From the NCBI GenBank assembly GCA_029262455.1, contig JAJCZJ010000020.1, positions 325,078 to 389,077 on the forward strand: DNA of 64,000 nt, in the 5' to 3' direction. The translations under genes were made by a program, and so were the position numbers. This stretch comes from Deltaproteobacteria bacterium. GTDB lineage: Bacteria; Desulfobacterota; Binatia; HRBIN30; CADEER01. The notes under the pieces were generated by a model, which worked only from the letters and a program-made list of their open reading frames with translations, was not told the DNA's origin and searched no databases. Numbering within the stretch: position 1 is the first letter of the stretch; each line of letters starts with the position of its first letter. Positions 30,591 to 47,900 of the stretch are shown in pieces.

Positions 30591-30673
30591 TCGATGCAAA
30601 TCACTTGCCGTGTCACAAGTTTTCCCCTTTTAAGCTTGACAGGAAGTCAGCGAACGTCGAGACTGCCTCCCGG

Positions 30674-31962: not shown

Positions 31963-32469
31963 ATGAGCGACTCCAAAAAGACAAGAAAGCAGCTAATCGA
32001 AGAACTCGAACAACTTCGTGGTCAAGTCGCGCAGCGACAGCAGTCGCAGTCGGACAACAGTGCACCGGCGCTTGCCGGCGACGTTTCACGACGCACCGCG
32101 CTAAAGGTCGCCTGGACCGCGCCGGTCATTTTGGCAATCCCTCTCCAGGCCGATCGCTCTGGCGCCCAACCTCCGGTCGGAACGGTGGCCCCGGGCTGTC
32201 CCACCATGACCCCGACCAACGCGGCCCCTCCGACTAGCTCGCCGACCTTGTTCCCAACGACCGCTGAGCCGACGATTTCGCCGACTCAACCAGTCCCGAC
32301 CACCAGGTTGCCAACGTCCAGTCCCACGAACGACCCGACATTGCGTCCGACCACCAGCCCGACGATCCCTGCCCCGACGGCTATGCCGACGGCGAGGCCG
32401 ACCACCAGCCCGACGATCCCTGCTCCGACGCTTTCCCCGACCCCTGGTTTCCCGACGCTTTCCCCGTAA
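31963..32469 (+). CDS. Small exported Pro/Thr/Ser-rich protein, paralog A (coiled-coil N-region plus SRRTALK Tat-like motif)
   Basis: Internal Met of ORF 31810..32469: MSDSKKTRKQLIEELEQLRGQVAQRQ...DVSRRTALKVAWTAPVILAIPLQ followed by PTTSPTIPAPT-type repeats. A paralogous N-terminus is found at 45413..45892 on the opposite strand. Confidence 0.5.
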   Translation: MSDSKKTRKQLIEELEQLRGQVAQRQQSQSDNSAPALAGDVSRRTALKVAWTAPVILAIPLQADRSGAQPPVGTVAPGCPTMTPTNAAPPTSSPTLFPTTAEPTISPTQPVPTTRLPTSSPTNDPTLRPTTSPTIPAPTAMPTARPTTSPTIPAPTLSPTPGFPTLSP

Positions 32470-32611: not shown

Positions 32612-33976
32612 ATGTCGTCAGGAAACAGCGTAGAAACGCCGCCTACCAACTCTGGAGACTCCCCACGAGCACGGGGTGCGGCGGCTCGGCGGGTACGTCC
32701 GCGGCAGCGGGGCGGGCTCGAGACTTTCGAAGTACACAACGAAATCGTCGTGCTTCCCGGCGAGGGGGACCGCGTTTACGCGCTGAACGAGTCCGGTAAG
32801 GAGATCTTCGGCCTCTGCGACGGTCGCCACACCCTAGAGGCAATGGTCGACCAACTGGCGTCGAGGTACGACGCGCCTGACGTCGCGATCATGGGCGACG
32901 TGTCCGCAGCGATATTCGACCTCCACGGCCTCGGGCTGGTCGATATTCCTCCACCGGCTGACGCAGCTGCATCGATCGAGCCGCAGACCTCGGTCAAGGC
33001 ACGACCCAACGTGCGTTTCGTCTTCGGCATAGAGGACGTGCCCTATTTCCACTGGCAGCTTGCCATCCTCTTCGAGTCGCTCGTCGGCCAATTGCCCGAC
33101 GGTTGGGACGTCACCGTCGTCGTTTGCAACGACGAAGCACCGATTTCCGACGAGCTCATGAAGATCGTTTCCGAGTACGGTGTTCGCATCATGACCGGCA
33201 CCAGTCTCGCCGATCGCCACAGTCTCGACTTCGCCGGCGGCGGTGATCGCTACGTTCCGATGAACCGAGTCGAAGCACTCAGCGTCATTCGGCAAATCGT
33301 CGAACCCGAAGACGTCGTTTGCCTTCTGGACACCGACGTCTTCCTGTACGGCAACCTTCAAGAACAACTCTTCCCGACCGGCAACGCAATGGCCCGCAAC
33401 TGGATCATCTCCGAAGATCGGTACTTCGCGTTCTCGACCAACAACGAACGAGGACTGTCGCTCCCGAAGCTGCTCGAAGCCCTGGGGTGCGAGCAGGAGT
33501 TCAAACCCGGTGGCGTAGCGGTCTTCTTGACGGGAGAGACGATCCAACGCGAGCGCGTCATCCCCGACATTTTCCGTTTCCTTCAGGTTCTGTTCCTGCT
33601 CGGGAAAATCGTCGACGCACCAGCGCACGGCGTTTGGGTCGCCGAAATGGCATGCTTCGCAATGGCCATGTACCCCAACGAAATCGACTACGAGCTTCTC
33701 GACATCCCGCAATTCGCCGTCCAGGAGCAGCATGCTGAAGTCGCCCCCGACGGTTCGTTCTTCCACTACTACACCGACATCAACGACGGCGGGGGATCAA
33801 ATGGTCCGTTTTTCGAATCGCAGTGGCATAAACAGTTATTTCACCAGTCCAACATGCTCCTCGAAGACTTCGACAGCTTCAGAGTGAACGCCAAAGGCCG
33901 CCTCGAGCAGCGCTTCTTCGAAATCGCCGACAAGGCGAGAAAGCGCCTTTACGGCATCGAACGCACGGGCAAGTAG
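32612..33976 (+). CDS. PqqD-like (RRE) domain fused to a DxD-containing putative glycosyltransferase domain
   Basis: Residues ~36-112 (FEVHNEIVVLPGEGDRVYALNESGKEIFGLCDGRHTLEAMVDQLASRYDAPDVAIMGDVSAAIFDLHGLGLVD) match the PqqD/RiPP-recognition-element pattern (LNETA..IWELCDG..T..EI...L...Y......DV..FL..L...GLI). The C-terminal domain has DTD and acidic motifs. Confidence 0.5.
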   Translation: MSSGNSVETPPTNSGDSPRARGAAARRVRPRQRGGLETFEVHNEIVVLPGEGDRVYALNESGKEIFGLCDGRHTLEAMVDQLASRYDAPDVAIMGDVSAAIFDLHGLGLVDIPPPADAAASIEPQTSVKARPNVRFVFGIEDVPYFHWQLAILFESLVGQLPDGWDVTVVVCNDEAPISDELMKIVSEYGVRIMTGTSLADRHSLDFAGGGDRYVPMNRVEALSVIRQIVEPEDVVCLLDTDVFLYGNLQEQLFPTGNAMARNWIISEDRYFAFSTNNERGLSLPKLLEALGCEQEFKPGGVAVFLTGETIQRERVIPDIFRFLQVLFLLGKIVDAPAHGVWVAEMACFAMAMYPNEIDYELLDIPQFAVQEQHAEVAPDGSFFHYYTDINDGGGSNGPFFESQWHKQLFHQSNMLLEDFDSFRVNAKGRLEQRFFEIADKARKRLYGIERTGK

Positions 33977-33980
33977 AGCC

Positions 33981-34598
33981 GTGTTGTCAATGTTCGATAC
34001 GCCCGCACACCTCGAGCAGCAGACGCGCGAGCAACAGGCCGCAGCCCGGTACTGCGGGCTCGGCTTCAAAAAGGCCACGCTGCCCTCCGAGGTCTTGCAA
34101 CGGTTGCGCCAACACCTGGAAACGAACAGCCGCCGATTCCGCGCCGAGGAGCCCATCGACTACCTCGTCAACCCGGACCCCGGGAAGATTCCGGCCCTTT
34201 ATTTCGAGGACAAAGAATTCAACGCCACCCTAAGTCGCGAGCTACAAGGATTGCACGAAGAGTGGGCCGGAAGGAGTCTGACCGAGTCCGCCTGCTACGG
34301 CATCCGCGTCTATCAACGCGGCAGCTTTCTCTACAACCACGTCGACCACACCGACACACACATCATCAGCTCTTCGATCTGCGTCGACCACCGCCTCGAC
34401 AAGCCGTGGCCCCTCTACGTCGAGGATATCGACGGCAATCCCCACCAGATCGATCTCGACCCTGGCGACATACTGTTCTACGAGGGAGCCCGCCTGCGAC
34501 ACGGCCGTGCCTATCCACTCGAGGGTGACTACTACGCATCCATTTTCGTCCACTATCGACCCGCAAATCTCTGGTCTTCGCGGCTCGTTGGCACCTAG
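33981..34598 (+). CDS. 2OG-Fe(II) oxygenase superfamily protein (PhyH/P4H-like)
   Basis: YNHVDHTD (HxD) followed by a distal H in LRHGR and a jelly-roll-like spacing. Alternative ATG start at 33990. Confidence 0.55.
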   Translation: MLSMFDTPAHLEQQTREQQAAARYCGLGFKKATLPSEVLQRLRQHLETNSRRFRAEEPIDYLVNPDPGKIPALYFEDKEFNATLSRELQGLHEEWAGRSLTESACYGIRVYQRGSFLYNHVDHTDTHIISSSICVDHRLDKPWPLYVEDIDGNPHQIDLDPGDILFYEGARLRHGRAYPLEGDYYASIFVHYRPANLWSSRLVGT

Positions 34599-34640: not shown

Positions 34641-36644
34641 GTGAGACATCTACTCTATACAAACTACCAGTCCGGTCAGTCGGGTTTGAGCAACGGCATC
34701 ATGTCGATCGAGCTGGGCGTGGTCCTCGCGTTCCTGACGAATCGGTTTCTCCTGCTCGATGGCAACATCTCCCCGCCGGCCAATATCGTGTCGTACGGCG
34801 ATCGAGTCGACAACAGCCAGCCGAGCCGCGTCACCGACCTGATCGACCTACCGGTCGCCTGGAGTGAGCCAGGAAGCGTCGACGTGTCCAAGTTGCCGTT
34901 CCTCGAATTGAGCGACGACCATCTGGGGAGTGCCGCGTTCTATGTCCCCGGCACCGTCGACATCCGATCCGCCGACGCGGAAGCGTTCGCCAACGGCAGG
35001 ACAGTGTGGCTCAACGCTGGCGGCTCGCTCGACGAGATCCCGGTGCTGCGAGTGTCCGAGGATCACAGCAAAGACAATCTTCGATACAATCTCAACTACT
35101 ACTCGTACTTCTTCTACCTCGACGACGAAACGCGTCGCTCCGTCTACCGCATGCTCGAGCGGATGCAACCAAAGCAGGACCTAGGGGAGCTGGCGAAGCG
35201 CGTCGCCGGCGATCTCGGAGCATTCAACGCGGTGCACTTGCGACGCGGTGACTTCAAGGTGACCTATGGAGTCACCACCCTCGACCGTCAACCTTGGGAA
35301 GCAATCGAGGCGCTCGAGCATCACTTCAAACGCGACGACACTCTGGTCTTCGTGACCGACGAGCGCGACGACCCGTTCTTCGACGAGATCAAGAAGGTCT
35401 ATACGCATCACGTATTCATCGATCACCACATCCTCGACGACTACGAGAAGGACTTCGCCGCATTGCAGCACCGCGACAGCATCGCCTTGGCCTATCTTTC
35501 CCAGCTCGTGGCGGCCGAATCCGCCGACTTCATTGGCACCATGACCAGCACGTTCACCGCCATCATCCAGCGCTACCGCGGCAATCGCGGCAAGGCCGAG
35601 AGTTTCAAGTACCTTTGGAACGAGCTCCCGGACGACGGCGATCGTCTCGAACGCGGCCGTCATCCGGTTAGTGAGTGCGTCCCGATGGACCGCGGCATGA
35701 TGGTCGAAGAGTCGTCGGGTCCGTACTCATGGAATCGCTACAACAAGAGGATCGCCGCCAACTGGATGCGCGAATGGCCCGAAAGTTTTCTGACCCAAGA
35801 GAGCCTCGAAACCGGCAAATTGACGACCGGGGCCAGCCCCGTTGCCCGCCCCATCGTTCTGGTTCGTCCCGAAAGGACGAAAGTCGAGGTCGCGTTCGAC
35901 GGCTTGAGCATCATTCTAAACTCGCAAGTGCCTCGCGTTGCGACCAAGCTGAGCGAAGCCTTCGAATCACGCCAAGCTGCGAGTCCAGCGAACGTCATCG
36001 GGGAGTTCGAGGTTGCTGAAGAAGACGGCGACTTCCGTCTTCTGCAACGCGGCCAGGAAATCGCCACCGCAGCAAGCTACGAGGAGTTGGCGCGCACGTT
36101 AAAACTCCGCATGGTGCCGATCTTTGTCGGTGCGCGCCGCCGGCACGTGTGGCTGGAAGCTTTTTCCTTCCGTAGAGCAGGCCATGCGCTGGTTCTCGCC
36201 GGCGACATGGGTCCTCCATCGGACTGGCTGCCGGACGCCATGTGCTCGAACGGCTGGGAGCTGCTGTGGGACGAGATCGTCCCGATCCGCCTGGAAGACT
36301 GTACCGTCACACCGTTCGGCCGCACGACCTGGCCGAAGGGCGCAGCCCTGCGCATCGACCGTACGCCCTGTCGCGTCAGCGGCCTGATCGTCACCAGCCG
36401 ACAAGTCCAGCGCCGCGACACCTTGACCGTCTTGTCCCCAGCCACCGGGGTGGCGGAGTTGATCGGCCGCTGCGTCGACTTCCGCACCGACCGCAAGCGG
36501 GCGGTAGAACGCCTGTGCAAGCTGGTCGAGAAACGAACCGTAGGCAGACTGTCCTTCAGCCGCGCCGAGACCGCTGTCGATCTCCTCACGCGCCCCTTCC
36601 TCGACGCGGAGCGTGAGTCCGCCCACGGTACAAAGTCTGCATGA
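34641..36644 (+). CDS. Fucosyltransferase-superfamily GT-B (O-FucT-like) domain plus ~250-aa C-terminal domain of unknown function
   Basis: N-terminal QSGLSNGIMSIELGVVLAFLTNRFLLL resembles the GGLxNQ block of O-FucT/POFUT-like GTs. HLRRGDF matches the H-x-R-R-G-D motif shared by GT11/GT23/GT65/GT68. The C-terminal region has no recognised motif. Confidence 0.45.
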   Translation: MRHLLYTNYQSGQSGLSNGIMSIELGVVLAFLTNRFLLLDGNISPPANIVSYGDRVDNSQPSRVTDLIDLPVAWSEPGSVDVSKLPFLELSDDHLGSAAFYVPGTVDIRSADAEAFANGRTVWLNAGGSLDEIPVLRVSEDHSKDNLRYNLNYYSYFFYLDDETRRSVYRMLERMQPKQDLGELAKRVAGDLGAFNAVHLRRGDFKVTYGVTTLDRQPWEAIEALEHHFKRDDTLVFVTDERDDPFFDEIKKVYTHHVFIDHHILDDYEKDFAALQHRDSIALAYLSQLVAAESADFIGTMTSTFTAIIQRYRGNRGKAESFKYLWNELPDDGDRLERGRHPVSECVPMDRGMMVEESSGPYSWNRYNKRIAANWMREWPESFLTQESLETGKLTTGASPVARPIVLVRPERTKVEVAFDGLSIILNSQVPRVATKLSEAFESRQAASPANVIGEFEVAEEDGDFRLLQRGQEIATAASYEELARTLKLRMVPIFVGARRRHVWLEAFSFRRAGHALVLAGDMGPPSDWLPDAMCSNGWELLWDEIVPIRLEDCTVTPFGRTTWPKGAALRIDRTPCRVSGLIVTSRQVQRRDTLTVLSPATGVAELIGRCVDFRTDRKRAVERLCKLVEKRTVGRLSFSRAETAVDLLTRPFLDAERESAHGTKSA

Positions 36645-37630
36645 CAGACCAAGCAACCGCACCGCGCCAGATCGACATCCGCATCTCCACCATCGGCGGG
36701 CACGAGTATCGGTTGAATCTCCGCGAAGACGCCGTCCATTTGCGCGACCTCTTTACTCGATTCGTCAACCGACCGGCGACTGGGGCTGTCCGAGCTCCTG
36801 AATTCATCCAACTGCCCCTCGACGGAGGCAACGCTTCCTGCACGATCGCCGTCGATCAGATTGTGTCGATCGTCACCACGCCACCAGTCGTCATCGAAGT
36901 GCAACAACCCGCCGTCGAGCCAAACGTAATTCCAGATGTGCCGGCAGTGGTCGCGCCACCCCAGATCCGGCGCGCACACTACACGGTGATCGACGACTTT
37001 CTCACCGTCGATGAGCACCGAGACATGCTGGCGTTGGCATTGAGCGAGAAGGACAGCTTCGAACCCGGTACGGTGCAGGGTGAACCGAGTCCACACCGAC
37101 GAAACAGCGTCATCATGAACTTCGCAGACTCGGCGCACGGAACACTGCTGACAAGTCGTCTGCTCGTTTGGTTTCCATTGATCGCAAAGGCGCTGAAGGA
37201 ACCACTGTTTCCGCTCAAGACGGTCGAGTCGCAACTGACCGCCGCCAACGACGGAGACTACTATAAGCCTCACCTCGATACCGACGGGAAGACCCCCGAT
37301 TTCCGGGTCATCGCGTGCGTCTACTATTTCTTCCGCGAGCCAAAAGGGTTCACGGGCGGCGACCTACGCCTCTATGATTCCATCGAAACAGGTGGCGAAA
37401 TCTGTCAGGCGGATTCCTTCCAAGACATTCGGCCGGCAAGCAATCGCTTGGTCGCATTCACCTGCGAGACCTTCCACGAGCTGCTCGCGACTCGCTGCCC
37501 GTCCAAGGATATCGAAGACAGTCGTTTTGCGGTGACCGCGTGGTTTCACCGCAGCGGCGCACCGGACCCCGACGCCAAGTTCGGTTGGGGACATTATCGT
37601 TGCGGCGAAGTTCCGGAGGCACTGCGGTGA
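36641..37630 (+). CDS. Novel ~80-aa N-terminal domain fused to a prolyl-4-hydroxylase-like 2OG-Fe(II) oxygenase
   Basis: C-terminal domain has YYKPHLDTD (HxD), GGDLRLY, NRLVAF..ETFHEL (second His) and RFAVTAWF (2OG-binding Arg), which is the P4H pattern. The N-terminus IDIRISTIGGHEYRLNL...LRDL...QLPLDGGNASCTIAVDQIVSIVTTPP is paralogous to the N-terminus of the 29406 protein. ATGA overlap with the upstream gene. Confidence 0.6.
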   Translation: MTDQATAPRQIDIRISTIGGHEYRLNLREDAVHLRDLFTRFVNRPATGAVRAPEFIQLPLDGGNASCTIAVDQIVSIVTTPPVVIEVQQPAVEPNVIPDVPAVVAPPQIRRAHYTVIDDFLTVDEHRDMLALALSEKDSFEPGTVQGEPSPHRRNSVIMNFADSAHGTLLTSRLLVWFPLIAKALKEPLFPLKTVESQLTAANDGDYYKPHLDTDGKTPDFRVIACVYYFFREPKGFTGGDLRLYDSIETGGEICQADSFQDIRPASNRLVAFTCETFHELLATRCPSKDIEDSRFAVTAWFHRSGAPDPDAKFGWGHYRCGEVPEALR

Positions 37631-37802: not shown

Positions 37803-38930
37803 ATGATCTTCACGGTTTTCGTCGCACCGGTCGAACCAACGCAACAGTGGCGTGCCGATCTCCTCGAATACTCATGGCGACGCATCAAGCAGAGCGGCGA
37901 ACTGATCCGGCTGGCGCCAACCGCCCCCGGACGCGCACCAGGTAGCAGAGGGAGAGTCGGGAGAACCGTCAAAACGTTCGACTGGAACCCCCACCCGTAC
38001 ACCCAGGACGTGTACGCCGGCTATCAGACAACCGCCGGCGTACTCGAGTGGTTGTTCAACGAGCCGGCCGAAGGAACAGTCCTTTTGCTGGATTCGAGCT
38101 GCATCCTACGCCACCCGGTTACAGCAGAGGTCGAACCAGGCCACGTGCGCGGGTCGTCGTGGCCGGAGATCCCACTTGGCACGGACGGCCCATTCGGCCT
38201 GCATGATGATCTGAAGTTTCTCGAATCCTATTGCGTCAACCGCAAGCTCCCCCTCGCTCCCGTGCGGATGCCGATTTTGATCCACACGGCGGACCTGCGA
38301 AAAATCGCGGCGCGCTGGCTCGAGCTTACGGCGTTGATTCGATCCCATGCCGTAGGCGTTCACGGAAAATACCTTCATGCAGATCGCGTCGCCTACACCG
38401 TCGCCGCCGCCGAATACCGCATCCTCCACACCCTTGACGACCTCGGCACTACGACGTCGGATACCGGCAAAGACGTTCCGATCGTCGACTACAGCACACC
38501 GATCAAGTCCAAACAGGGAGAGATCGTCTGGGACCGAAAGGTCTATCGACCATGGGAGGCAGTCTACACCGAAAATGCGCGCGCAGGCGCAGGCAGAGAC
38601 GTACTCGGGATCCTGAACGAGATGGTGACGCGCCGCGAATCGGGAGCCGAGCTTGCGGCAACACGTCCACAGCGGTGCTACGGGGTGCGGGAAGCACGAA
38701 TTCTCGACGACATTCATCTCGAAGTACCTGGGTGTGCCGACTTGATGTCGCTGAATCAATCCGCGGCTGCCATCTGGGAGCTGTGCAACGGCGAGAACAC
38801 ACTCGCCGAGATCGTCAGCGAGCTCGAGAGACAATTCGACGCGTCACGCGAAACCCTCATGACATCCGTCGAATCGACGGCGAGGGATTTGGAAAGCTCA
38901 GGTGCCATCGAGCTGGAGGAGCTGTTCTGA
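37803..38930 (+). CDS. Unassigned N-terminal (possibly glycosyltransferase) domain with C-terminal PqqD-like (RRE) domain
   Basis: C-terminal 83 aa ILDDIHLEVPGCADLMSLNQSAAAIWELCNGENTLAEIVSELERQFDASRETLMTSVESTARDLESSGAIELEE match the PqqD pattern. N-terminal ~290 aa begin MIFTVFVAPVEPTQQWRADLLEYSWRRIKQSG. Confidence 0.5.
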   Translation: MIFTVFVAPVEPTQQWRADLLEYSWRRIKQSGELIRLAPTAPGRAPGSRGRVGRTVKTFDWNPHPYTQDVYAGYQTTAGVLEWLFNEPAEGTVLLLDSSCILRHPVTAEVEPGHVRGSSWPEIPLGTDGPFGLHDDLKFLESYCVNRKLPLAPVRMPILIHTADLRKIAARWLELTALIRSHAVGVHGKYLHADRVAYTVAAAEYRILHTLDDLGTTTSDTGKDVPIVDYSTPIKSKQGEIVWDRKVYRPWEAVYTENARAGAGRDVLGILNEMVTRRESGAELAATRPQRCYGVREARILDDIHLEVPGCADLMSLNQSAAAIWELCNGENTLAEIVSELERQFDASRETLMTSVESTARDLESSGAIELEELF

Positions 38931-40156
38931 TGGCATCCAAAGCAAAACCAAGCGCCAAAAAGTCCGTGCCGACCACAAAAACAAAGCACGCAGCAAAACG
39001 TGCCAAAGCCTCGGCCAAGAAAACAGCCAAAGCGCCGCCCGGAAAAGCCACGACAGCACGGGCGAAGAAGACCACCAAGACTCCGGCCTCCAAGAGCCCC
39101 AAAACCCGGACCCAAAGGACCCGGGCCCAAAAGCCCCGGGCCCGCAAAGCCGCGCTCAAAGTATCGCAAACGGTGTCGCCCAAAGGATCGCAAACGACTT
39201 CGAAGACGGAGCGAACGACCCCATCGCCTCGCGCAAAGTCGCGGCAGGCCACAAAACAACCCCAGATCTTCGTGTCGATCGCCTCCTACCGCGACCAGTT
39301 TCTTCACTTCACCATCGAGTCGGTGCTCAAACAGGCGACGTACCCAGAACGGTTGACCTTCGGCCTCTGCTGGCAAGCCGACGACACCGAGCAACTCGAT
39401 CAATACCTGCACGATCCGCGTTTCCGCATTCGCAAGTACCCGTACTACGCGAGCCTCGGCTACGGTTGGGCAAGAGCCGAGATCCAAAAACTATACGCCG
39501 GCGAAGAGTACCATCTACTGATCGATTCTCACACGTATCTCGCCAAGGGGTGGGACGAGAATCTGATCGCGCAACTCGAGAGCAAGCCGGGCGAGAAGCC
39601 GCTACTGACGACCAGCTCACCCCCTTTCACCTTCGACAATGACGGCAACGTCGTAATCCCGTGGCAAGGGACCGAACACGACGGCGTGCCGCTGATGAAG
39701 TGCGCACGAATCCAACCGGCAGGGTGGGTCGACATCCAGATGTCCAATGAGCGCAAGTCCACCAAACATCAAACCACCGGATTGGTGTGCTGTAACTTTG
39801 TCTTCACGCACGGGGCTTGGATCCGCGAAGTGCCCGAGGATCCGGCGATGATCAACGCCGGCCACGAGTCAGCCCTTTCGGTTCGTACCTTCACCCACGG
39901 ATACGACATCTACCTGCCCGACGAAATTCAAATCTGGCACCTCGACTACAACAACTACCCGAACGGTGAGCGCAACAAGGTATGGGAAGCAAAGTCCGAC
40001 AGTTGGCAGTCTGAGGGCACCGAGATCATGCTGCGGCGGCTGCAAGCGCTGTTCTACAACCGCGGCGACCGCGCCTCGCTCGGCCGCTACGGACTCGGTC
40101 GATCCCGCACCGTAGCCGACTGGGCGGAGATCACCGGACTCGACCTCAGTGACTGA
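38930..40156 (+). CDS. GT60-like (Glyco_transf_GlcNAc / Skp1-Hyp and mucin-Thr GlcNAc-transferase family) enzyme with ~110-aa Lys/Ala/Thr-rich histone-H1-like N-terminal tail
   Basis: ATG overlaps the upstream stop (TGATG). Tail MASKAKPSAKKSVPTTKTKHAAKRAKASAKKTAKAPPGK... Catalytic region starts IFVSIASYRDQFLHFTIESVLKQATYPERLTFGLCWQADD, which I recognise as the N-terminal signature of the GT60 family from memory (needs HMM confirmation). Paralogous to 46893..47900. Confidence 0.45.
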   Translation: MASKAKPSAKKSVPTTKTKHAAKRAKASAKKTAKAPPGKATTARAKKTTKTPASKSPKTRTQRTRAQKPRARKAALKVSQTVSPKGSQTTSKTERTTPSPRAKSRQATKQPQIFVSIASYRDQFLHFTIESVLKQATYPERLTFGLCWQADDTEQLDQYLHDPRFRIRKYPYYASLGYGWARAEIQKLYAGEEYHLLIDSHTYLAKGWDENLIAQLESKPGEKPLLTTSSPPFTFDNDGNVVIPWQGTEHDGVPLMKCARIQPAGWVDIQMSNERKSTKHQTTGLVCCNFVFTHGAWIREVPEDPAMINAGHESALSVRTFTHGYDIYLPDEIQIWHLDYNNYPNGERNKVWEAKSDSWQSEGTEIMLRRLQALFYNRGDRASLGRYGLGRSRTVADWAEITGLDLSD

Positions 40157-41942
40157 CGTCGACTCCGCACTACTGCCAATTCCCCAACCCGAGTGGCGTG
40201 CTTCTTTATCCGGCGACGGCGCGGCAGTTGATGTCCTGATTTTAAGCAAGGACCGCGCCTGCCAACTCGACGGACTGCTGCGCACGATGCGCGCGTTCCT
40301 GACCATCCCACACCGGAAATACGTACTGTACAAGACGTCTAATTTGGCGTTCGAGCGCGGCTACGACATGCTCCGCCGGTGGAATCCCGAGGTCGAGTTC
40401 ATCGACGAGGCGCAAACGTTTCGACAATGCTACCTCGACCTCGTGGCAAGGATCGCCGCCGGGCCTGGTCGCTACTGGATGCCGGTGATGGACGACATGA
40501 TCTTCACTCGCACGTTCACCGCACAGCCACTCATCGACCTCCTCGACACAGACGAGGACGTGCTGGCGATCTCTCTGCGCCTCGGCGAGAACATTACCTA
40601 TTGCTACACCCGAAACGCTCCAACCACACCTCCGGACTTCAGCAACGGACACCGTTGGGAATGGAGAACAGCCAGCCCAGGCTACTGGAACTATCCAATG
40701 TCCGTCGACGCCAACATCTACCGCACGGCGGAAATGGCCGAATACATCCCGACCCTCCAATTCGGCAAGGCTGAAGTCATCGAGGCACGCATGGCCGGGG
40801 TGCCCTTGAACCGCCCCCATATGCTGTGTGAACCGACCCCCAGCGTACTCAATCTCGCGATCAACCGCGTTCAACACACCTTCAAGAATCGGCACGGCAC
40901 AATCACGCCAGAAGCCCTGAACGGCGCTTTCCTCGCGGGTTTCGCGATGGATGTGCGCCCGTTGCTGGGTCGAACCTTCAACGCCTGTCACGTCGAGGTC
41001 GAGCTGTCCTTGGTCCCCGATGCGCGCGAGCGCCCCGGCGCAACGCCCCTCTCTTCGACCGGCTGGAAACCACAGCGAAACGGCGCCGTCGTCGTGACCG
41101 AGAGCCATGCTGTCGTGACGCTCAAGAGGAACGGAACGAAGCTCAAACTCAATCAGAGCGCCGAAGAGATCTGGAAACTGTGCGACGGAACACGAACGCC
41201 CGAGGACATCCAAAACGAGCTCGCGCAACATTTTGACGCAACCCCGCGCCAGCTTCACAGCGGCGTACGAAGCGCCCTGGCGAATTTCATCAATCACGGC
41301 CTTCTCCGTCAGGAACGCCCGGAAGGCGCATACCGCCGCATCGACCTGCGCCAGATTCCCTGCTTCGTGATCAATTGCGAAGCCGATGCTGAGAAGGACA
41401 CGTTGATGAAGCGTCAGCTCGCTGAGCTCGGGATACCGTACGAACGTGTACCCGGGATCGCCGCAAGCCCGGATTGGGTCGGCGTCGCGCTGTCGCACCT
41501 CAAAGTGCTTCGCCTGACCCGCTCGACGACACCCTTCCTGGTGCTCGAGGACGATTGCTTGTTCAACGACCGCTTCCAACCAGTGTGGCAAGTACCGGTC
41601 GAGGCCGACGCCCTGTATCTCGGCGTTTCCGAGTTCGGCCTCGAGACCCCCGGTCACTTCAGCTGGGGCCGCCGGCGCAAGAACCAATGGAGACCCTACG
41701 ACCGGTCCTTCCTCCGCATTTTCAACATGCTCGCACGCCATGCGGTCGTGTACCTTTCCAACGACTACTGCGAGCAAGTCATCCAATCGCAAATCGAAGC
41801 ACTGACGAATCGAAGTTTGCCGTACCCTGGGGACATCGGCTGCGCGATGCTGCAAGCATCGCACGTCGTCCTGACCCCGAACGAACCGATCTGCCGGCAA
41901 ACCGGTCGTGACTCGACCGTGCGTCCGTTGCCGGAGCTCTGA
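40149..41942 (+). CDS. Three-domain enzyme: GT-A (GT2-like) domain - PqqD-like (RRE) domain - GT25 family glycosyltransferase domain
   Basis: GTG start overlapping the upstream stop. N-terminal VDVLILSKDRACQLDGLLRTM and a DDM motif (GT-A). Residues ~312-388 VVTLKRNGTKLKLNQSAEEIWKLCDGTRTPEDIQNELAQHFDATPRQLHSGVRSALANFINHGLL (PqqD-like). C-terminal CFVINCEADAEKDTLMKRQLAELGIPYERVPGI matches the GT25 N-terminal motif (LPS GT25 / collagen Hyl-galactosyltransferase family). Confidence 0.5.
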   Translation: MTDVDSALLPIPQPEWRASLSGDGAAVDVLILSKDRACQLDGLLRTMRAFLTIPHRKYVLYKTSNLAFERGYDMLRRWNPEVEFIDEAQTFRQCYLDLVARIAAGPGRYWMPVMDDMIFTRTFTAQPLIDLLDTDEDVLAISLRLGENITYCYTRNAPTTPPDFSNGHRWEWRTASPGYWNYPMSVDANIYRTAEMAEYIPTLQFGKAEVIEARMAGVPLNRPHMLCEPTPSVLNLAINRVQHTFKNRHGTITPEALNGAFLAGFAMDVRPLLGRTFNACHVEVELSLVPDARERPGATPLSSTGWKPQRNGAVVVTESHAVVTLKRNGTKLKLNQSAEEIWKLCDGTRTPEDIQNELAQHFDATPRQLHSGVRSALANFINHGLLRQERPEGAYRRIDLRQIPCFVINCEADAEKDTLMKRQLAELGIPYERVPGIAASPDWVGVALSHLKVLRLTRSTTPFLVLEDDCLFNDRFQPVWQVPVEADALYLGVSEFGLETPGHFSWGRRRKNQWRPYDRSFLRIFNMLARHAVVYLSNDYCEQVIQSQIEALTNRSLPYPGDIGCAMLQASHVVLTPNEPICRQTGRDSTVRPLPEL

Positions 41943-41977: not shown

Positions 41978-44900
41978 GTGAAAAAGGGCACAATCCACGA
42001 TCTCTTCTCCCGCACCGCTTGCGTCGTGTCCGACAGGCACCGATTCATCTATTTGACGGCGCAAAACGCCACGTCTTCCCTGAAGGCCGAGCTGTCGAAC
42101 GAGCACTGCGGCGGCGTTGTCCTCGCCCGCGCACAGGTGGCTGATAAACTCTGGAACCAATACTTTACGTTCGCCTTCCTGCGCGACCCGCTGACGCGCT
42201 TTCTCTCCGCCTATCAGGAAGTGTCTCTGCACATGGAGCGTGACAAACTCGAACCGCGCCCTTTCGGCCGGATGCCCGACGGCCTCGATCGCTTTCAGGC
42301 ATTTCTCGCGGACGTCGAGCAGAACGGTCCGTGGAACGAGCACATTGCACTCCAGCTAGCCTTCGTCGAGCGCCGAAGAATCGACTTTTGGGGGCTCGTC
42401 GAAACGCTGCAAGACGACTTCCAACAAATCTACACCCGGCTGGGATTGGGGACCTGTCCCGTTCTGCCAAAACGCCGCTCTCGCAGCGGCCGTGAGGAAA
42501 AGGACGGCATCTCGCGCTTCGCCTTCCATCCGGAGGACCTCGATGCGACGACAATTGAGCGCATCTACGACCTCTACCGTGAGGACGTCTTGCTGATTCG
42601 AGCGGTTCGCCCCGACGCACCTGAAATGCAGCCGCACTCAACCCGTGCCGCACCGCCCCCCGGAATGGTGCAGGTGGCGATCGCCCTGGCCAACGGCGGC
42701 GAATACTCCCTCGAACTTCCGCCCGGCCAACCAGAGCTGGGCGCTCTGCAAGCTGTGGTATCACCACAACAATCCGATGGACGTTTTCTCGGCCCGCAAG
42801 TTCTGCAGGTTCCACTGCGTGGTGGCAATTCCGCGCTGACGTTTTCCACGCAGCACCTCGTTCGTCTCGAGCTACGCCCCCCCGACGCCCGAGAACTGCG
42901 CCGAATCGAGGCGCCGGCCACCGGCACGGGCAACTCCGGAGTGAATCTAATAAACGTCGGGAACAAGCGGCCGCCAACCGAGGACCCATCGAGCAATATC
43001 GACGAGGCGCATCTCGGTGGCTACATTCGTGCGGCCAATACACCGATTCTCCACAGCGCCGCAGGCCCACACGGGGACCGGGGAACCTGGAATCCGCTGC
43101 TGTGGCGTTGGGCAATCGAAGATCTCGACGTGCGATCAGTGATCGATATCGGATGCGGCGAGGGACACGCCGCCGGATTTTTCTCCGACGGCGGGTGTGA
43201 AGTGCTCGCGCTCGATGGCAGCCTTCAAGCGCGCTATTCCAGCGTTGTTCCAGATCGCCACGTCGTACACGACTTCGTCGAGGGACCTTTCGTCCCAGAG
43301 AAAAGCTTCGACATGGCCTGGACCTGCGAGTTCGTCGAACACGTCGAGGCGCGTTTTCTCCACAATTTCCTGGCTACGATCGCATCGAGCCGCAAGTACG
43401 TGATGATGACGTTCGCCAGCCCGACACAAACAGGCTGGCATCACGTCAATTGCCAAGAACAGGGTTACTGGGTCGATCAGTTGGGACGCCTCGGGTTTCG
43501 CCTGGACGACGATCTAACCGAGAGAGGCCGAGCCTTGGCTCACTCTCATTTTCGCGAACGTGGCCTGGTCTTCGTCCGGCACCATCGAAAAGGCGAGTCA
43601 TCGAAGTCCACAGAACCGTCGCTGCGCGCGACTGCCGAGAGTCACTGTCTCGACCCGCTGCCGGTCCAATCCATGCAGGTCGCACAGCGCGAGAGCGATG
43701 CCTTCTACCTGTTTGTCGACATCTTCGTGCATCCGACCGCACCGAGAATCGTGGCGATCTCACCACCCTATGGCGAAGACTGGAATCCTAACGTTGTCGG
43801 CATCGACTACGATGCCGTCGACCTTGTATTCGGTGACATACGCGTCCGCGGCCGCTGCCTGCGGCACCGTCTCGACTCCTGGGAGCCTTGCATGCTTCTC
43901 GAGTTCGAGGACGAAGACCTAACAGAGCGCATTCGGGCCAACGACGAGATCAACGTCACGATCGAGGCCGGCTCGCATTCGTCGTCCTTCGTCCTGACGA
44001 CCCGCCCAGCGCCAGCCTACGATGTCGCAATGAGCCTCGTCGTACGCAACGAAAACCGCTGGATCCGCACGTTTCTCGACTACTACCTCGACTGCGTCAA
44101 AGCCGACCACGTCTTCATCTACGACAACGGAACGTCGGAACAAGACCAGCTGCTTTCCATTCTTCACCCGTACCGAGAGCGCGGGCAAGTGACGTACATC
44201 CCGTGGGATTTTCGCTGGCGCAACCGCATCGACCGCAAGATGATCGGCCAACCGACACAGGAGGCTCACTCCCTTGCAAGATTCGCAAACACCGGGTGGA
44301 TCGGCTTTCTCGACATCGACGAGTTCCTGCGCTTGCCGCACAGCACCCTGCCACAATTTCTCGCTCGCTTCGCGTCCGCGGAGGTCGACGGACTCTCGTT
44401 CGGTATCCGGTGGTTTTCTTACGAGGGCCCGCTTGCACTCGATGAGATTACGAGTGTGCCACTGCAATTCCTCCACTCGCGCCGCAATGAGCTCGGCCGA
44501 AAACGGCAGAAGTTCTTCGTCAAAGGCGGCGGCTCGAAGTTTCTTCGCTTGCATTGGCTCGAAGACGGAGGTCGCGAACTGCCCATCGACGACACCGAGA
44601 TCTACTTTCACCACTACGATCAACGTCCCGGCCGTTTCGAAGAAGGAAAGCAAATCGGAGGAGCGCGCGACGAATACATGCTGCGCTTCGCCGACCAGCT
44701 CTCGCGCCCCGAGCGGCACAGAGCCCCTCTAACCGAGAGAGGATGGATCACCCACATCAACTCTTCGATCGAACGCGCCGAACGCGACACCTCCAAACTC
44801 ACCCCGGAAGTCCTCGCCGTCGACGGCATGTGCGGGCGCTACACCCGTCACTTCTACAACAACCTCTGCAGCTTCGGAGGATGCCGCTACCTCGAGATCG

Positions 44901-45385
44901 GCAGCTATCACGGGGCCAGCACCTGCGCGGCAATCTTCGGCAACGACGTATCCGCCGTGTGCATCGACAATTGGACACAGTTTCACGGCAAGCGAAGCCG
45001 CTTCGAGGATGCCCTACGACGCTTCCGAGGAGATCGCTCGGTCCGAGTCATCGAGCAAAACTGCTTCGAAGTAGACGCCTCAAGCCTCGGCCCATTCGAC
45101 ATCTATCTCTACGATGGCGACCACAGCCAGCAGAACCAGTACCGAGCCTTGCAGCACTTCGTTCAGACGCTGGCCAAGCTCGCCGTAGTCGTCATCGACG
45201 ACTGGAATCGTCGGCATATCCGTCGGGGGACACAGGACGCGATTCGGGACCTCGAACTCGATGTAATCTTCGACCGAGAGATCCTACTGCCAACCGACCA
45301 GACGGCGGATGAAAACCGTGACGCTGGAGCGCGAACTTGGTGGAACGGACTCTACATCATGCTCGTTCGCAGTAGAACGCAGTAG
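41978..45385 (+). CDS. 1135-aa five-domain enzyme: sulfotransferase (Sulfotransfer_2-like) - novel ~80-aa domain - class I SAM methyltransferase - GT-A glycosyltransferase (DIDEFL) - TylF/CmcI-like O-methyltransferase
   Basis: GTG start. Five domains are visible:
- (1) 5'-PSB-like RFIYLTAQNATSSLKAEL and 3'-PB FLRDPLTRFLSAY, carbohydrate sulfotransferase motifs.
- (2) MVQVAIALANGGEYSLELP...LQVPLRGGNSALTFSTQHLVRLELRPP, homologous to the N-termini of the 29406 and 36641 proteins.
- (3) RSVIDIGCGEGHAAGFFSDGGCEVLALD, methyltransferase motif I.
- (4) HVFIYDNGTSEQ...GWIGFLDIDEFL, GT-A DxD.
- (5) FDIYLYDGDHS, Methyltransf_24 (TylF/MycF-like) motif. Confidence 0.55.
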   Translation: MKKGTIHDLFSRTACVVSDRHRFIYLTAQNATSSLKAELSNEHCGGVVLARAQVADKLWNQYFTFAFLRDPLTRFLSAYQEVSLHMERDKLEPRPFGRMPDGLDRFQAFLADVEQNGPWNEHIALQLAFVERRRIDFWGLVETLQDDFQQIYTRLGLGTCPVLPKRRSRSGREEKDGISRFAFHPEDLDATTIERIYDLYREDVLLIRAVRPDAPEMQPHSTRAAPPPGMVQVAIALANGGEYSLELPPGQPELGALQAVVSPQQSDGRFLGPQVLQVPLRGGNSALTFSTQHLVRLELRPPDARELRRIEAPATGTGNSGVNLINVGNKRPPTEDPSSNIDEAHLGGYIRAANTPILHSAAGPHGDRGTWNPLLWRWAIEDLDVRSVIDIGCGEGHAAGFFSDGGCEVLALDGSLQARYSSVVPDRHVVHDFVEGPFVPEKSFDMAWTCEFVEHVEARFLHNFLATIASSRKYVMMTFASPTQTGWHHVNCQEQGYWVDQLGRLGFRLDDDLTERGRALAHSHFRERGLVFVRHHRKGESSKSTEPSLRATAESHCLDPLPVQSMQVAQRESDAFYLFVDIFVHPTAPRIVAISPPYGEDWNPNVVGIDYDAVDLVFGDIRVRGRCLRHRLDSWEPCMLLEFEDEDLTERIRANDEINVTIEAGSHSSSFVLTTRPAPAYDVAMSLVVRNENRWIRTFLDYYLDCVKADHVFIYDNGTSEQDQLLSILHPYRERGQVTYIPWDFRWRNRIDRKMIGQPTQEAHSLARFANTGWIGFLDIDEFLRLPHSTLPQFLARFASAEVDGLSFGIRWFSYEGPLALDEITSVPLQFLHSRRNELGRKRQKFFVKGGGSKFLRLHWLEDGGRELPIDDTEIYFHHYDQRPGRFEEGKQIGGARDEYMLRFADQLSRPERHRAPLTERGWITHINSSIERAERDTSKLTPEVLAVDGMCGRYTRHFYNNLCSFGGCRYLEIGSYHGASTCAAIFGNDVSAVCIDNWTQFHGKRSRFEDALRRFRGDRSVRVIEQNCFEVDASSLGPFDIYLYDGDHSQQNQYRALQHFVQTLAKLAVVVIDDWNRRHIRRGTQDAIRDLELDVIFDREILLPTDQTADENRDAGARTWWNGLYIMLVRSRTQ

Positions 45386-45412: not shown

Positions 45413-45892
45413 TTACTCCTCGCCCTTGGTTTCTTTTCCCACGGGAGCCGGTCGGCCCTCGTCGTCATCCGAAGCAATGAGCTTTTTAGCACCGAAGCCA
45501 AAGAGCGCCGCTGCGGCCACAGCCGCGGCGCCGCCTGAAACCACAGGCGCATCGACTGCTGCCTGAAAGGCGGTCGGAACCGCCGTACTGGGAAGGCCCG
45601 GATCGAGGACCGTCGGGACCTGCGTCGGTGCGGCAGTAGGATTGAGGCAAAGTGACGGCGAATTGGTACATTGCGTCGTCCCAGCTTCGACAGGCGCGAC
45701 GAATCCAAGATCAGACGAGACCGGTACCGATAAGATCACCGGCGTTACCCAGGCAATCTTGAGCGCCGAGCGCCTTGAAATATCGTCGGAAAAAGTCGGC
45801 CGCGCCGCCTTCCCGTCCGTCACCAGCTCGCCCCGCAGCCGCTCGATCTCCTCGAGAAGCTCCTTTTTCGTCTTCGTTCCGTCACCCGCCAT
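45413..45892 (-). CDS. Small exported Pro/Thr/Ser/Ala-rich protein, paralog B (coiled-coil N-region plus SRRSALK Tat-like motif, C-terminal hydrophobic segment)
   Basis: Internal Met of ORF 45413..45997, preceded by gagggtc. MAGDGTKTKKELLEEIERLRGELVTDGK...DISRRSALKIAWVTPVILSVPVSS, then a PT-rich region with two Cys, then AAAVAAAALFGFGAKKLIASDDDEG. Confidence 0.5.
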   Translation of the reverse strand: MAGDGTKTKKELLEEIERLRGELVTDGKAARPTFSDDISRRSALKIAWVTPVILSVPVSSDLGFVAPVEAGTTQCTNSPSLCLNPTAAPTQVPTVLDPGLPSTAVPTAFQAAVDAPVVSGGAAAVAAAALFGFGAKKLIASDDDEGRPAPVGKETKGEE

Positions 45893-46048: not shown

Positions 46049-46744
46049 TCATCCCACCCCGCAGACCTCCCGACCCGTGGCTTCACGATAGTAGGACACA
46101 TCCTCGGCGCAAATGCGCAAAGCCAGTTCTCGCGTCTCCCCATCATAGAAAAGCTCCGGAACCGGCATCCCGTGCCGGCGAAGCCAGCCCGGGGAACGAT
46201 CTGTCGCGCGCTCTCGAATCGTCACGTCCTGCGGCGAAGGATTCTCGTGCAGGACCGGCGCGGAAACCGAAACTCTCTCGTTTAAGCTCGCCAGCCCCCG
46301 CGAGAGATCTTCCACCGCAACGACTTCGTCGAAGTCTATCTGATGCGTGTTTCGGACCTGCGGCACCAAATGGTGCTGGGGTTCGATCCCGCGGGTCTGA
46401 ACATGCTGCAAGGTGTAGAGGAACTTGCGAAAGCTCTTGTCCCGCAGCGAGAGCTTCCGGTCATCGTCGGCAAAGCACCACAACGTTTCATCGCGCACGA
46501 CCCACAAGGTGTAGAACCCGACGAGTCGGCGAAGCGGATCGCGCACAAAGAAGACCTTCCAATAGTCACGACAGCGGTCGATGTCGCCGTGCCAAATCAG
46601 GAAAGCGTCAAGGTCTTCGACCGGTTGCTTCGTCTTCTCCTCAATCGCTGCCTTGCACCACGATCGGATGCTGTTCGAACCACACTTGGGACTATAGACG
46701 GCAAGTACTTCGAGTGGATCCGCGGCTAGGAAGAAGTGGGCCAT
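46049..46744 (-). CDS. Carbohydrate sulfotransferase-like protein (Sulfotransfer_2/3 family); possible N-terminal extension through the heptad repeat to a GTG at 46900
   Basis: From MAHFFLAADPLEVLAVYSPKCGSNSIRSW (5'-PSB PKCGS) and FFVRDPLRRLVGFY (3'-PB). The ORF-track version starts at a GTG at 46898-46900, 5 nt upstream of the preceding gene's stop, which is a coupling-type overlap. That start would add (T-S-H-E-S-P-V)n repeats to the N-terminus. Confidence 0.5.
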   Translation of the reverse strand: MAHFFLAADPLEVLAVYSPKCGSNSIRSWCKAAIEEKTKQPVEDLDAFLIWHGDIDRCRDYWKVFFVRDPLRRLVGFYTLWVVRDETLWCFADDDRKLSLRDKSFRKFLYTLQHVQTRGIEPQHHLVPQVRNTHQIDFDEVVAVEDLSRGLASLNERVSVSAPVLHENPSPQDVTIRERATDRSPGWLRRHGMPVPELFYDGETRELALRICAEDVSYYREATGREVCGVG

Positions 46745-46759
46745 GGGGATTCTATGTGT

Positions 46760-46878
46760 GTGATTGGTGACTGGTGATTCGTGACTGGTGACTGGTGATT
46801 CGTGACTGGTGACTGGTGATTCGTGACTGGTGACTGGTGATTCGTGACTGGTGACTGGTGACTGGTGACTGGTGATTG
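46760..46878. repeat. 17 tandem copies of a heptanucleotide (GTGACTG/GTGATTC; 21-nt super-unit x4) between the GT60-like gene and the sulfotransferase
   Basis: Read directly: gtgattg gtgactg gtgattc gtgactg gtgactg gtgattc ... gtgactg gtgattg. On the minus strand this is CAGTCAC/GAATCAC. In the reading frame of ORF 46049..46900 it encodes the heptad TSHESPV five or more times. Confidence 0.8.
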
Positions 46879-46892
46879 GTTGGGCAAAAGTT

Positions 46893-47900
46893 CTACACAC
46901 CGGCGCCGGCCTGGTACTCTTCGAAAGTGACGCAGCTCTCCCAGTCGGACGGCGACCGGATTGTCACTGGGTCGGGGTTCGCGCCACTAAACGCATCCGG
47001 ATGCGCGCGTTTGGCTCGGAAGTCAAAGCCCGAAAAAATCTCGTAGTCCCGCAAGGTCCGCACCCGACCGAAACCGTACGGTCCGGGCAGCGGTGATTCA
47101 TAGCTCGAGAGCAGCTGTTCCAAACGGGCAAACGCCTCGCGGTTGCGGCGCTCGACGACGTCTTCCCCCTGCTCCCAATGGCGCCGCGGCGGCCCGTCGT
47201 TGTGCTGCATGTGCCATGCCACGACTTCCGTTGGAAGAAAGAAGTCGTACCCCCAGGTGTACGAACGAATGGTCACATTCAGCTCTTCGCCCCAATAGTA
47301 TTGTCCGGGATCCTGCGGCACCTCGACATTCCAGATGCCGCGCGAGAACGCGAAGTTGCCGTTGACAAACCGTGTACGCCCCGGCTTCTTGACGTTGGGG
47401 GCTCCAAAGTCGAACCACGGCGCCCAATGGTCCGACGCGCTCCAGCCGCTCACCTTGGTCGTCGGCACACCCATTTCAGTACGACGCTGCGGCACACCAT
47501 CCTCGTCGTACCAGAATAGGGGAGCATTCATGCTGAGAACGGGTTTCTCACTGGGGAGAGCCTCCAGCATCTCGATCAGCCGCGCGTCCCAGTCGGGCTC
47601 GAGCTTCATATGGGAATCGATCTGCAGAGTGTAGGGTTCACCTCGCCACAGAGACTGCGCAATATTACGCGCCCAGGGGCCGCCCTGGCTTGCCGCAATC
47701 GTCGTATCCACAAACCGAAACCGCGGATCTCGGCGAAAATCCTCCAACGGCACCGGCGCTTTTGGGTCACGCTGCCAGCAAATTCCGAAACGCAGCGAAT
47801 CTGGAGCACTTGCCGTTTCGATCGCGTCACGCAAGGTGCGCGGCAACTCGGGGTCCGTGTACGACGCGATCGCGACGAAGATCTGAGGGTGGGAAGCCAC
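46893..47900 (-). CDS. GT60-like (Glyco_transf_GlcNAc family) glycosyltransferase, paralog of 38930..40156 without basic tail
   Basis: GTG start (MASHPQIFVAIASYTDPELPRTLRDAIETASAPDSLRFGICWQRD). Collinear similarity with the 38930 protein (IFV[AS]IASY.D, [IL]CWQ, DSH, W...E, WH). Confidence 0.45.
   Translation of the reverse strand: MASHPQIFVAIASYTDPELPRTLRDAIETASAPDSLRFGICWQRDPKAPVPLEDFRRDPRFRFVDTTIAASQGGPWARNIAQSLWRGEPYTLQIDSHMKLEPDWDARLIEMLEALPSEKPVLSMNAPLFWYDEDGVPQRRTEMGVPTTKVSGWSASDHWAPWFDFGAPNVKKPGRTRFVNGNFAFSRGIWNVEVPQDPGQYYWGEELNVTIRSYTWGYDFFLPTEVVAWHMQHNDGPPRRHWEQGEDVVERRNREAFARLEQLLSSYESPLPGPYGFGRVRTLRDYEIFSGFDFRAKRAHPDAFSGANPDPVTIRSPSDWESCVTFEEYQAGAGV

Follow-up and report, generated by a model that had tools for sequence, protein, structure and literature searches.

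A PqqD-type recognition element between two GT-A-like domains in a putative glycan-extending enzyme from a Binatia genome

Closest described systems

Modification guided by a RiPP recognition element (RRE; RiPP, a peptide made by the ribosome and then modified post-translationally) is known for short peptides. Fusions of RREs to glycosyltransferases (GTs), flagged bioinformatically by RRE-Finder and by a later survey (PMC7470986, PMC12710340), have so far been surveyed by genome mining and are uncharacterised, and the later survey lists RRE fusions of GT2 enzymes (PF00535) as 'not previously known' (PMC12710340). Here we describe a gene for a 597-residue protein in which a PqqD-type RRE lies between two different GT-A-like domains. 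It is found in a 64,000-nucleotide stretch of DNA from a Deltaproteobacteria bacterium of the Binatia lineage (assembly GCA_029262455.1, contig JAJCZJ010000020.1, positions 325,078 to 389,077, forward strand), the whole of which is referred to as the window. The protein is proposed, with a probability of roughly 0.55, to be a bifunctional glycosyltransferase that docks on the leader of Pro/Thr-rich proteins and extends their O-glycan by two sugars.

Like the RRE-fused tailoring enzymes of RiPP pathways, this protein carries a PqqD-type winged helix-turn-helix fused to a catalytic domain, which implies leader-guided modification. The reported RRE-GT fusions, however, are of the GT2 type (PF00535), whereas the RRE of the present protein, one of three RRE enzymes in its cluster, is placed internally and separates two different GT-A domains. 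The RiPP enzymes also act on short peptide precursors, in contrast to the Pro/Thr-rich proteins of 160-270 residues considered here. What is known thus comprises RRE-guided tailoring enzymes and surveyed RRE-GT fusions; what is new is the placement of an RRE between two different GT domains and its GT25-type partner, and the pathway around it may represent a class of its own. The literature yielded neither a characterised RRE-GT25 enzyme nor a bacterial RiPP with hydroxyproline glycosylation, neither a case in which glycosylation of Pro/Thr-rich proteins depends on a leader nor an account of this type of cluster, and PF01755, the GT25 family in Pfam, is not among the entries in the supplement of the 2025 RRE survey.

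By fold, the closest described enzyme is human COLGALT1 (GLT25D1; PDB 9evj, 8zgc). It likewise consists of two tandem GT-A lobes, with a GT25-type C-lobe bearing a Glu-Asp-Asp metal site, and it acts downstream of a 2-oxoglutarate (2OG)-dependent hydroxylase on a repetitive proline-rich protein, as is proposed for the present enzyme. Unlike the latter, COLGALT1 does not carry an RRE between the lobes, and its N-lobe lacks catalytic activity and shares no sequence relationship with the N-terminal domain described below. COLGALT1 works on hydroxylysine in the lumen of the endoplasmic reticulum; its sequence similarity to the C-terminal domain is marginal (E 0.3 by profile). The solved structure closest to that domain by sequence profile is mimivirus R655 (PDB 9crz, E 1.2e-5), which is also a fold match. 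R655 is a single-domain protein with neither an RRE nor a second GT, and it is a putative collagen glycosyltransferase whose activity is itself unproven (PMC9546862).

A further comparison, by pathway logic and not by homology, is the cytoplasmic Skp1 pathway of Dictyostelium and Toxoplasma, which comprises the prolyl 4-hydroxylase (P4H) PhyA, the GT60 enzyme Gnt1, and PgtA; the same order of enzyme classes is read here from genes alone. The two domains of PgtA belong to GT2 and GT74, as opposed to the N-terminal domain and GT25 of the present protein. PgtA also lacks an RRE, and the Skp1 acceptor is a single proline on a folded protein instead of a long Pro/Thr-rich region. GT60 enzymes attach the first sugar, N-acetylglucosamine (GlcNAc), to Skp1 hydroxyproline or to Thr/Ser in mucin domains; the step that comes next in Dictyostelium is the addition of two sugars by PgtA, one polypeptide with two GT domains (PMC8724618). 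A gene set of this type is present in the cluster, in the form of a P4H-type oxygenase (PF13640) and GT60-type GlcNAc transferases (PF11397).

Domain architecture of the 597-residue protein

The protein is encoded by a single open reading frame (ORF) on the + strand, of which the span singled out in an earlier sequence-only reading (41082..41942) covers residues 312-597 and the stop, that is, the C-terminal 286 codons. The gene begins with GTG, overlaps by 8 nt with the stop of an upstream GT60-like gene (...CTC AGT GAC TGA) and ends 35 nt ahead of the next gene. An independent public contig carries the identical gene call, and 13 full-length homologues (42-69% identity) are colinear with the protein, which is therefore the product of one real gene and no fusion artefact. 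Its parts are as follows.

40149..41942, + strand: whole gene, 597 residues, with an N-terminal GT-A-like domain, a PqqD-type RRE and a GT25-like domain (ORF list, sequence read, public contig gene call, colinear homologues)
40218..41033, + strand: N-terminal GT-A-like domain, residues 24-295 (model, fold matches, invariant residues in relatives)
40491..40496, + strand: Asp115-Asp116 of the N-terminal domain, after strand 4
41082..41306, + strand: PqqD-type RRE, residues 312-386 (PF05402, secondary structure, fold match)
41334..41939, + strand: C-terminal GT25-like GT-A domain, residues 396-597 (PF01755 in relatives, PDB profile matches, fold matches)
41547..41555, + strand: Glu467-Asp468-Asp469 of the C-terminal domain, invariant

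A structure model was built from a 137-row composite alignment, an earlier one from 14 sequences having been discarded as unusable (predicted local distance difference test, pLDDT, 52). It reaches a mean pLDDT of 93.2 and a predicted template modelling score of 0.80, with the domain order GT-A, winged helix-turn-helix, GT-A. In Foldseek searches of the PDB the top match is COLGALT1 (E 2.3e-11, ~680 aligned columns), itself composed of two GT-A lobes; further double-GT-A enzymes among the matches are PmHS2, LH3, LARGE1 and K4CP. The sequence-only reading had placed a PqqD-like segment between two GT domains of one polypeptide. The model and the 13 colinear homologues bear out an RRE flanked by two GT-A folds, and both peptides quoted in that reading, VVTLKRNGTKLKLNQSAEEIWKLCDGTRTPEDIQNELAQHFDATPRQLHSGVRSALANFINHGLL and CFVINCEADAEKDTLMKRQLAELGIPYERVPGI, occur in the ORF.

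The middle segment, suggested earlier to be PqqD-like over residues ~312-388, proved to be a genuine PqqD-type RRE. PF05402 matches residues 330-386 (E 3.6e-11, 43.7 bits against a gathering cut-off of 23.4), and several NCBIfam models of PqqD-type chaperones match as well, each under its equivalog cut-off. In the model, residues 312-385 (pLDDT ~85-95) form three strands followed by three helices (E315-319, E322-327, E330-334, H336-344, H351-359, H366-382), the order of a winged helix-turn-helix. Foldseek pairs this segment with TbiB1, a lasso-peptide RRE solved in complex with its leader (5v1u_B; TM 0.78, rmsd 3.1, 88 columns). It is indeed the third PqqD domain of the window: the other two score 52.2 bits (32612/32750..33976, N-terminal) and 51 bits (37803..38930, C-terminal) in Pfam and are 29% identical to each other.

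The N-terminal domain adopts a Rossmann-like GT-A topology in the model (pLDDT >90), with elements in the order E27-34, H37-50, E55-62, H66-78, E82-86, H91-104, E109-114. An SKDRxxQL loop follows strand 1, and Asp115-Asp116 stands directly after strand 4. Across 59 diverse relatives, D92/D93 (domain numbering, equal to Asp115-Asp116), R13 and Q16 are invariant, as are a Tyr and an Asn. GnT-I, SpsA and other GT-A enzymes are fold matches over 255-285 columns, attributed to this domain by alignment length. The sequence-only reading had called the domain GT2-like, which did not hold: among 13 members searched against Pfam at E<=1, neither a GT family (PF00535 included) nor any other family was matched, and an hhalign comparison with a GT2 of the window gave a probability of 0.05%. 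PDB sequence searches with a single sequence and with 13-sequence and 59-sequence profiles returned noise only. An hhalign comparison of the N- and C-terminal domains was likewise insignificant, so that no duplication is detectable between the two lobes. Relatives number 207 in the 90% database and 4308 representatives at E<=1e-3 in 1.84 billion proteins. They are mostly stand-alone 'hypothetical proteins' of ~260-280 residues, while others sit inside proteins of 1000-2000 residues with GT2, GT4 and methyltransferase domains. Judged from the model, the domain thus represents a large unclassified GT-A-like family (>4,000 representatives) without a Pfam model or a solved relative.

One unannotated homologue of the N-terminal domain is encoded by an uncultured 735-kb phage (LR756501.1, 478977-479768; 30% identity, 96% coverage, E 2e-39), the sole phage match by tblastn; the same search in plasmids gave no match.

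The C-terminal domain (residues 396-597) is best described as GT25-like, a divergent GT25 relative by sequence and model. PF01755 matches all 15 of its relatives examined at E<=1 (best E 1.6e-8), and several orthologues of the whole protein have a precomputed match to the same family. Besides the profile matches to R655 and COLGALT1 given above, R655 is recovered by Foldseek (E 1.1e-6), together with >15 viral proteins named GT25 (target TM 0.5-0.7, ~200-250 columns). Glu467-Asp468-Asp469 is invariant in the 15 relatives and aligns with 'vfEDDlrF' of COLGALT1 and 'lvlEDDinF' of R655. In COLGALT1 this Glu-Asp-Asp (E435/D437) has been shown by mutagenesis to be an unusual catalytic motif through which the GT25 lobe binds Mn (PMC12003778), and its conservation suggests that the C-terminal lobe is catalytically competent.

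Candidate substrates, proposed mechanism and alternatives

Two paralogous genes, one at each end of the cluster, encode proteins that are likely candidates for both the RRE ligand and the glycosylation substrate.

31963..32469, + strand: putative substrate 1, 168 residues, leader and Pro/Thr-rich core (ORF, orthologues; core 27% Pro, 24% Thr, no Lys)
45413..45892, - strand: putative substrate 2, 159 residues, paralogue with the same leader (ORF; leader hidden Markov model, E 3.4e-37)

Both are tripartite: two conserved segments, an N-terminal one (MSDSKKTRKQLIEELEQLRGQ...) and a second one (SRRTALKVAWTAPVILAIP), are followed by a Pro/Thr-rich region. Substrate 2 ends in a hydrophobic stretch and an acidic tail, AAAALFGFGAKKLIASDDDE, as does its counterpart in related locus L005; the orthologues in L008 and L010 end in IPVEL(S/T)EFEV instead. 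The leader model finds orthologues beside the two-GT enzyme in L002, L003, L005, L008 and L010, and beside a stand-alone RRE-GT25 protein in L027; it is this recurrent adjacency that makes the leader-bearing proteins candidates for ligand and substrate. They are kept across Binatia-like, acidobacterial and gammaproteobacterial genomes, including that of the cultured Elongatibacter sediminis CH-27, whose Pro/Thr-rich protein is encoded in L010 (3487..4017). The cores of seven candidate substrates contain 11-42% Pro and 9-25% Thr; four of the seven have no Lys and the other three have 2-4. Docking of the RRE on these leaders is proposed from the co-occurrence of the genes.

The second conserved segment may equally be the strand recognised by the RREs, the N-terminal helix of the leader being the other candidate for the bound part. 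Its likeness to a twin-arginine signal is at motif level only; such a signal (SRRxALK followed by WVAPVIL) was considered and rejected, as PF10518 reaches just 7.4 bits in one of six proteins, TIGR01409 is not matched, and two of eight homologues have KR for RR.

Two further proteins deserve mention. In L027 (7841-8536, - strand), the substrate homologue beside the stand-alone RRE-GT25 gene has, after its Pro/Thr-rich part, a C-terminal region like Peptidase_S74 (intramolecular chaperone/autoprocessing), a hint that this lineage makes a trimeric, fibre-like product. A large secreted-looking protein, encoded immediately upstream of substrate 1 (30086-31942, + strand), consists of cysteine-rich repeats and then a PT-repeat linker, with weak Disintegrin and 'acidic double-disulfide repeat' matches; its 805-residue counterpart in L002 (15-2432) contains a long PTxT repeat. 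This protein may be another glycosylation target.

The analysis establishes how the domains are arranged and folded, the conserved metal motifs, the synteny and the association with leader-bearing proteins; from these we infer that the RRE contacts the leader, which acceptor and donor sugars are used, in what order the steps run and where in the cell they take place. The RRE would dock on the leader that the Pro/Thr-rich proteins conserve over their N-terminal ~60 residues and hold their disordered core beside two active sites. The enzyme would take over once the prolyl-hydroxylase-like oxygenases and the GT60-like GlcNAc transferase have acted, its two lobes adding the second and third sugars onto a first O-linked sugar on hydroxyproline or threonine; extension after the GT60 step is suggested by the Skp1 analogy and by the overlap with the GT60-like gene. 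The product would then pass to the downstream sulfotransferase/methyltransferase/GT92 enzyme, where the glycan would be methylated, sulfated and extended. The 597-residue sequence has neither a signal peptide nor a membrane segment, and the partner enzymes use 2OG, S-adenosylmethionine, 3'-phosphoadenosine 5'-phosphosulfate and nucleotide sugars; the enzyme is therefore most likely soluble and the chemistry cytoplasmic. By its gene content, the cluster as a whole probably hydroxylates, glycosylates, methylates and sulfates the Pro/Thr-rich proteins encoded alongside. More tentatively, and somewhat short of even odds, the leader may recruit a series of enzymes, each with its own docking domain (a PqqD-type RRE or a module of ~75 residues described below), to a long Pro/Thr-rich protein, so that the cytoplasm yields a mucin- or extensin-like product that is hydroxylated, bears multiple glycans and carries methyl and sulfate groups.

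If correct, this mechanism would extend the leader-peptide 'RiPP logic' to the O-glycosylation of whole glycoproteins and provide a bacterial counterpart of eukaryotic hydroxyproline/Thr O-glycosylation with relatives of GT60 and GT25. It would also give a function to an orphan GT family and offer portable, leader-addressable glycosyltransferases for engineering. The small conserved core and the identifiable substrates make the system directly testable.

Several observations weigh against the proposed two-sugar mechanism. The GT25 assignment made in the sequence-only reading stands as far as the retained Glu-Asp-Asp motif and the COLGALT1 fold match go, but membership is distant: PF01755 gives 17.5 bits on the full-length window protein and 22.3 bits on the domain alone, both under the cut-off of 24. 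Sugar transfer by the N-terminal domain is suggested by its fold and motif, and GT-A-like folds also include nucleotidyltransferases. The Foldseek output is without query ranges, so that single matches are assigned to the N- or C-terminal domain by alignment length. The RRE is absent from the gammaproteobacterial orthologues in L008-L010 and from the related proteins P0011, P0013 and P0014, though the leader-bearing substrate is kept, and it is therefore dispensable in some lineages. Finally, no leader peptidase is evident, which, with substrates of 160-270 residues, means that this is not a textbook RiPP system.

The most substantial alternative reverses the order of steps and is essentially the model of the sequence-only reading. 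The GT25-like domain would initiate, placing the first sugar directly on a residue hydroxylated by the neighbouring 2OG oxygenases, and the N-terminal domain would add the second. With COLGALT1 as the best structural match, a retained Glu-Asp-Asp motif and two oxygenase genes in the cluster (one by motif alone), this has some appeal, yet it appears unlikely. The collagen-type hydroxylysine galactosylation on which the pairing with 2OG oxygenases was originally based fails on substrate composition, which rules out hydroxylysine as a general acceptor and would leave hydroxyproline alone. Moreover, a dedicated initiating-type GT60 gene (PF11397) lies immediately upstream and is co-conserved, and most bacterial GT25 enzymes (of the LgtB or Lic2B type) extend glycans and are not known to initiate on protein. 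The Lys-poor cores, an oxygenase closest to prolyl 4-hydroxylase and the coupled GT60-like gene together make GlcNAc linked to hydroxyproline or Thr and extended by a two-GT enzyme the better analogy. The earlier idea of leader-tethered addition of two sugars remains a reasonable mechanism, given an RRE between two GT-A folds.

It is also conceivable, but distinctly improbable, that only one lobe is catalytic, with a single sugar added and the N-terminal domain serving as a scaffold or a stabiliser that binds a sugar nucleotide. The overall two-lobe similarity to COLGALT1 invites this view, and there is precedent in the COLGALT1 N-lobe, which binds UDP-sugar and is structural, and in the accessory domain of LH3 (PMC12003778). 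The family of the N-terminal domain, however, occurs as stand-alone proteins of ~260 residues in thousands of genomes, with the Asp-Asp, Arg, Gln, Tyr and Asn invariant as expected of an autonomous enzyme, which is accordingly favoured over a COLGALT1-like structural lobe. Least probable, and very unlikely, is a non-protein acceptor such as lipopolysaccharide (LPS), capsule or a lipid-linked glycan, in which case the PqqD domain would have nothing to do with the Pro/Thr-rich proteins and would serve regulation or protein-protein interaction. Many GT25 enzymes do act on such acceptors, the Pfam name of the family being 'LPS biosynthesis protein', and the window holds GT2, three YfhO-like, MBOAT and sugar epimerase genes. 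Against it stand the grouping of three RRE-bearing enzymes with protein-modifying types (P4H-like, GT60-like and O-fucosyltransferase-like), the conservation of leader-bearing Pro/Thr-rich genes across phyla, and the lack of a Wzx/Wzy or ABC polysaccharide export set within the conserved core.

Gene cluster, distribution and modularity

The other genes of the cluster are given below in their order; the 597-residue enzyme stands between the first GT60-like gene and the 1135-residue tailoring enzyme, and the last two genes lie on the opposite strand.

32750..33976, + strand: first RRE enzyme (RRE-X), N-terminal PqqD domain and an unclassified catalytic domain with a DTD motif (Pfam PqqD 52.2 bits, gene call)
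33990..34598, + strand: small protein of about 202-205 residues whose HxD...H...R pattern is taken, from the alignment motif alone, for that of a 2OG oxygenase
34701..36644, + strand: O-fucosyltransferase-like protein (PF10250 25.5 bits, under the cut-off of 31.5; gene call)
36641..37630, + strand: P4H-like 2OG-Fe(II) oxygenase (PF13640 57 bits; prolyl 4-hydroxylase PDB 6t8m, E 4.2e-5)
37803..38930, + strand: second RRE enzyme (X-RRE), unclassified N-terminal domain and C-terminal PqqD domain (Pfam PqqD 51 bits)
38930..40156, + strand: GT60-like GlcNAc transferase, translationally coupled, upstream of the two-GT gene (PF11397 151.6 bits; gene call; synteny in L002, L003, L004)
41978..45385, + strand: 1135-residue tailoring enzyme with sulfotransferase, methyltransferase, GT92-like and methyltransferase domains (Pfam)
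46049..46900, - strand: sulfotransferase at the far end of the cluster (Pfam)
46893..47900, - strand: second GT60-like GlcNAc transferase at the far end of the cluster (PF11397 150.4 bits)

Gene order in L002 is identical, and the sulfotransferase and second GT60-like pair is present there as well. The GT60-like gene adjoins the two-GT gene in all related loci examined (L002, L003, L004). The reduced locus L003 keeps, besides the leader-bearing gene, just the small oxygenase, the GT60 and the enzyme of the 597-residue type, whose RRE is the sole one seen in the locus; even here the small oxygenase-like gene adjoins the GT60 gene. Pfam and PDB searches give no support for the oxygenase reading of the small protein (33990..34598). 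By gene content, the conserved core is the substrate, the small oxygenase, the GT60 and the two-GT enzyme.

In the other two RRE enzymes (32750-33976 and 37803-38930), the catalytic part has no Pfam or PDB match. Both catalytic parts open with the pattern 'F.(V/F)F......WQ/QW...L', which, together with the DTD motif of the first, may resemble plant peptidyl Ser/hydroxyproline glycosyltransferases of GT95/GT96. In cluster enzymes without PqqD, a module of ~75 residues recurs (GGxxYxLxL ... QLPLDGG ... PP), with 8 invariant columns in a four-sequence alignment, and this module may represent another type of docking domain. It is found at the following sites.

36641-37630: P4H-like oxygenase, residues ~8-85
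29367-30590: 407-residue protein with a DMD motif, residues ~15-92
41978-45385: tailoring enzyme, residues ~228-308
P0013: C-terminus

The architecture of N-terminal domain, RRE and GT25 is rare, with 13 clusters at 90% identity among 5.8 billion, and occurs in a Binatia, an acidobacterial and an unclassified metagenome-assembled genome (MAG). The nearest genome loci belong to a MAG of Candidatus Binatia (68% identity), to one that is unclassified and to one of an acidobacterium. Related proteins combine the domains in other ways.

N-terminal domain, RRE, GT25: 13 clusters
N-terminal domain, GT25, sulfotransferase, without RRE: P0011, P0013, P0014, P0019
Sulfotransferase, RRE, GT25: P0023
Methyltransferase, N-terminal domain: P0021, P0022
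GT92, N-terminal domain: P0024

Judging from these arrangements, the three domains recombine freely. Stand-alone PqqD-GT25 proteins of 290-355 residues form about two dozen clusters, and their genes adjoin other PqqD-fused enzymes (PqqD-GT10 included) and P4H-type oxygenases in analogous multi-RRE clusters. In Halieaceae, Lysobacterales and Elongatibacter, an RRE-less two-GT module is fused to the downstream sulfotransferase/methyltransferase/GT92 enzyme, giving proteins of 1419-2065 residues, and the same gammaproteobacterial genomes (L008-L010) keep the other two RRE enzymes. On this comparison the internal RRE is an accessory module that can be lost, and its origin is most simply pictured as the fusion of a gene for the N-terminal domain to an RRE-GT25 gene.

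Two of the related sequences look irregular. In L004 (9842-15608), P0018 (449 residues) seems to be a frameshifted or truncated giant of N-terminal domain, GT25, sulfotransferase and GT92, with the remaining GT25 in the next ORF. P0025 is chimeric-looking, with a cytochrome-like N-terminus and a GT25-like fragment, and is probably an assembly artefact.

Elsewhere in the window, three consecutive YfhO-like membrane proteins and a GT2 are encoded upstream of the cluster (16733-24116), with an MBOAT at 27498-28907 (- strand); together these are of the kind that typically glycosylates or acylates surface polymers outside the cytoplasm. A multi-haem cytochrome c of 536 residues (53227-54837, - strand) is unrelated to the cluster.

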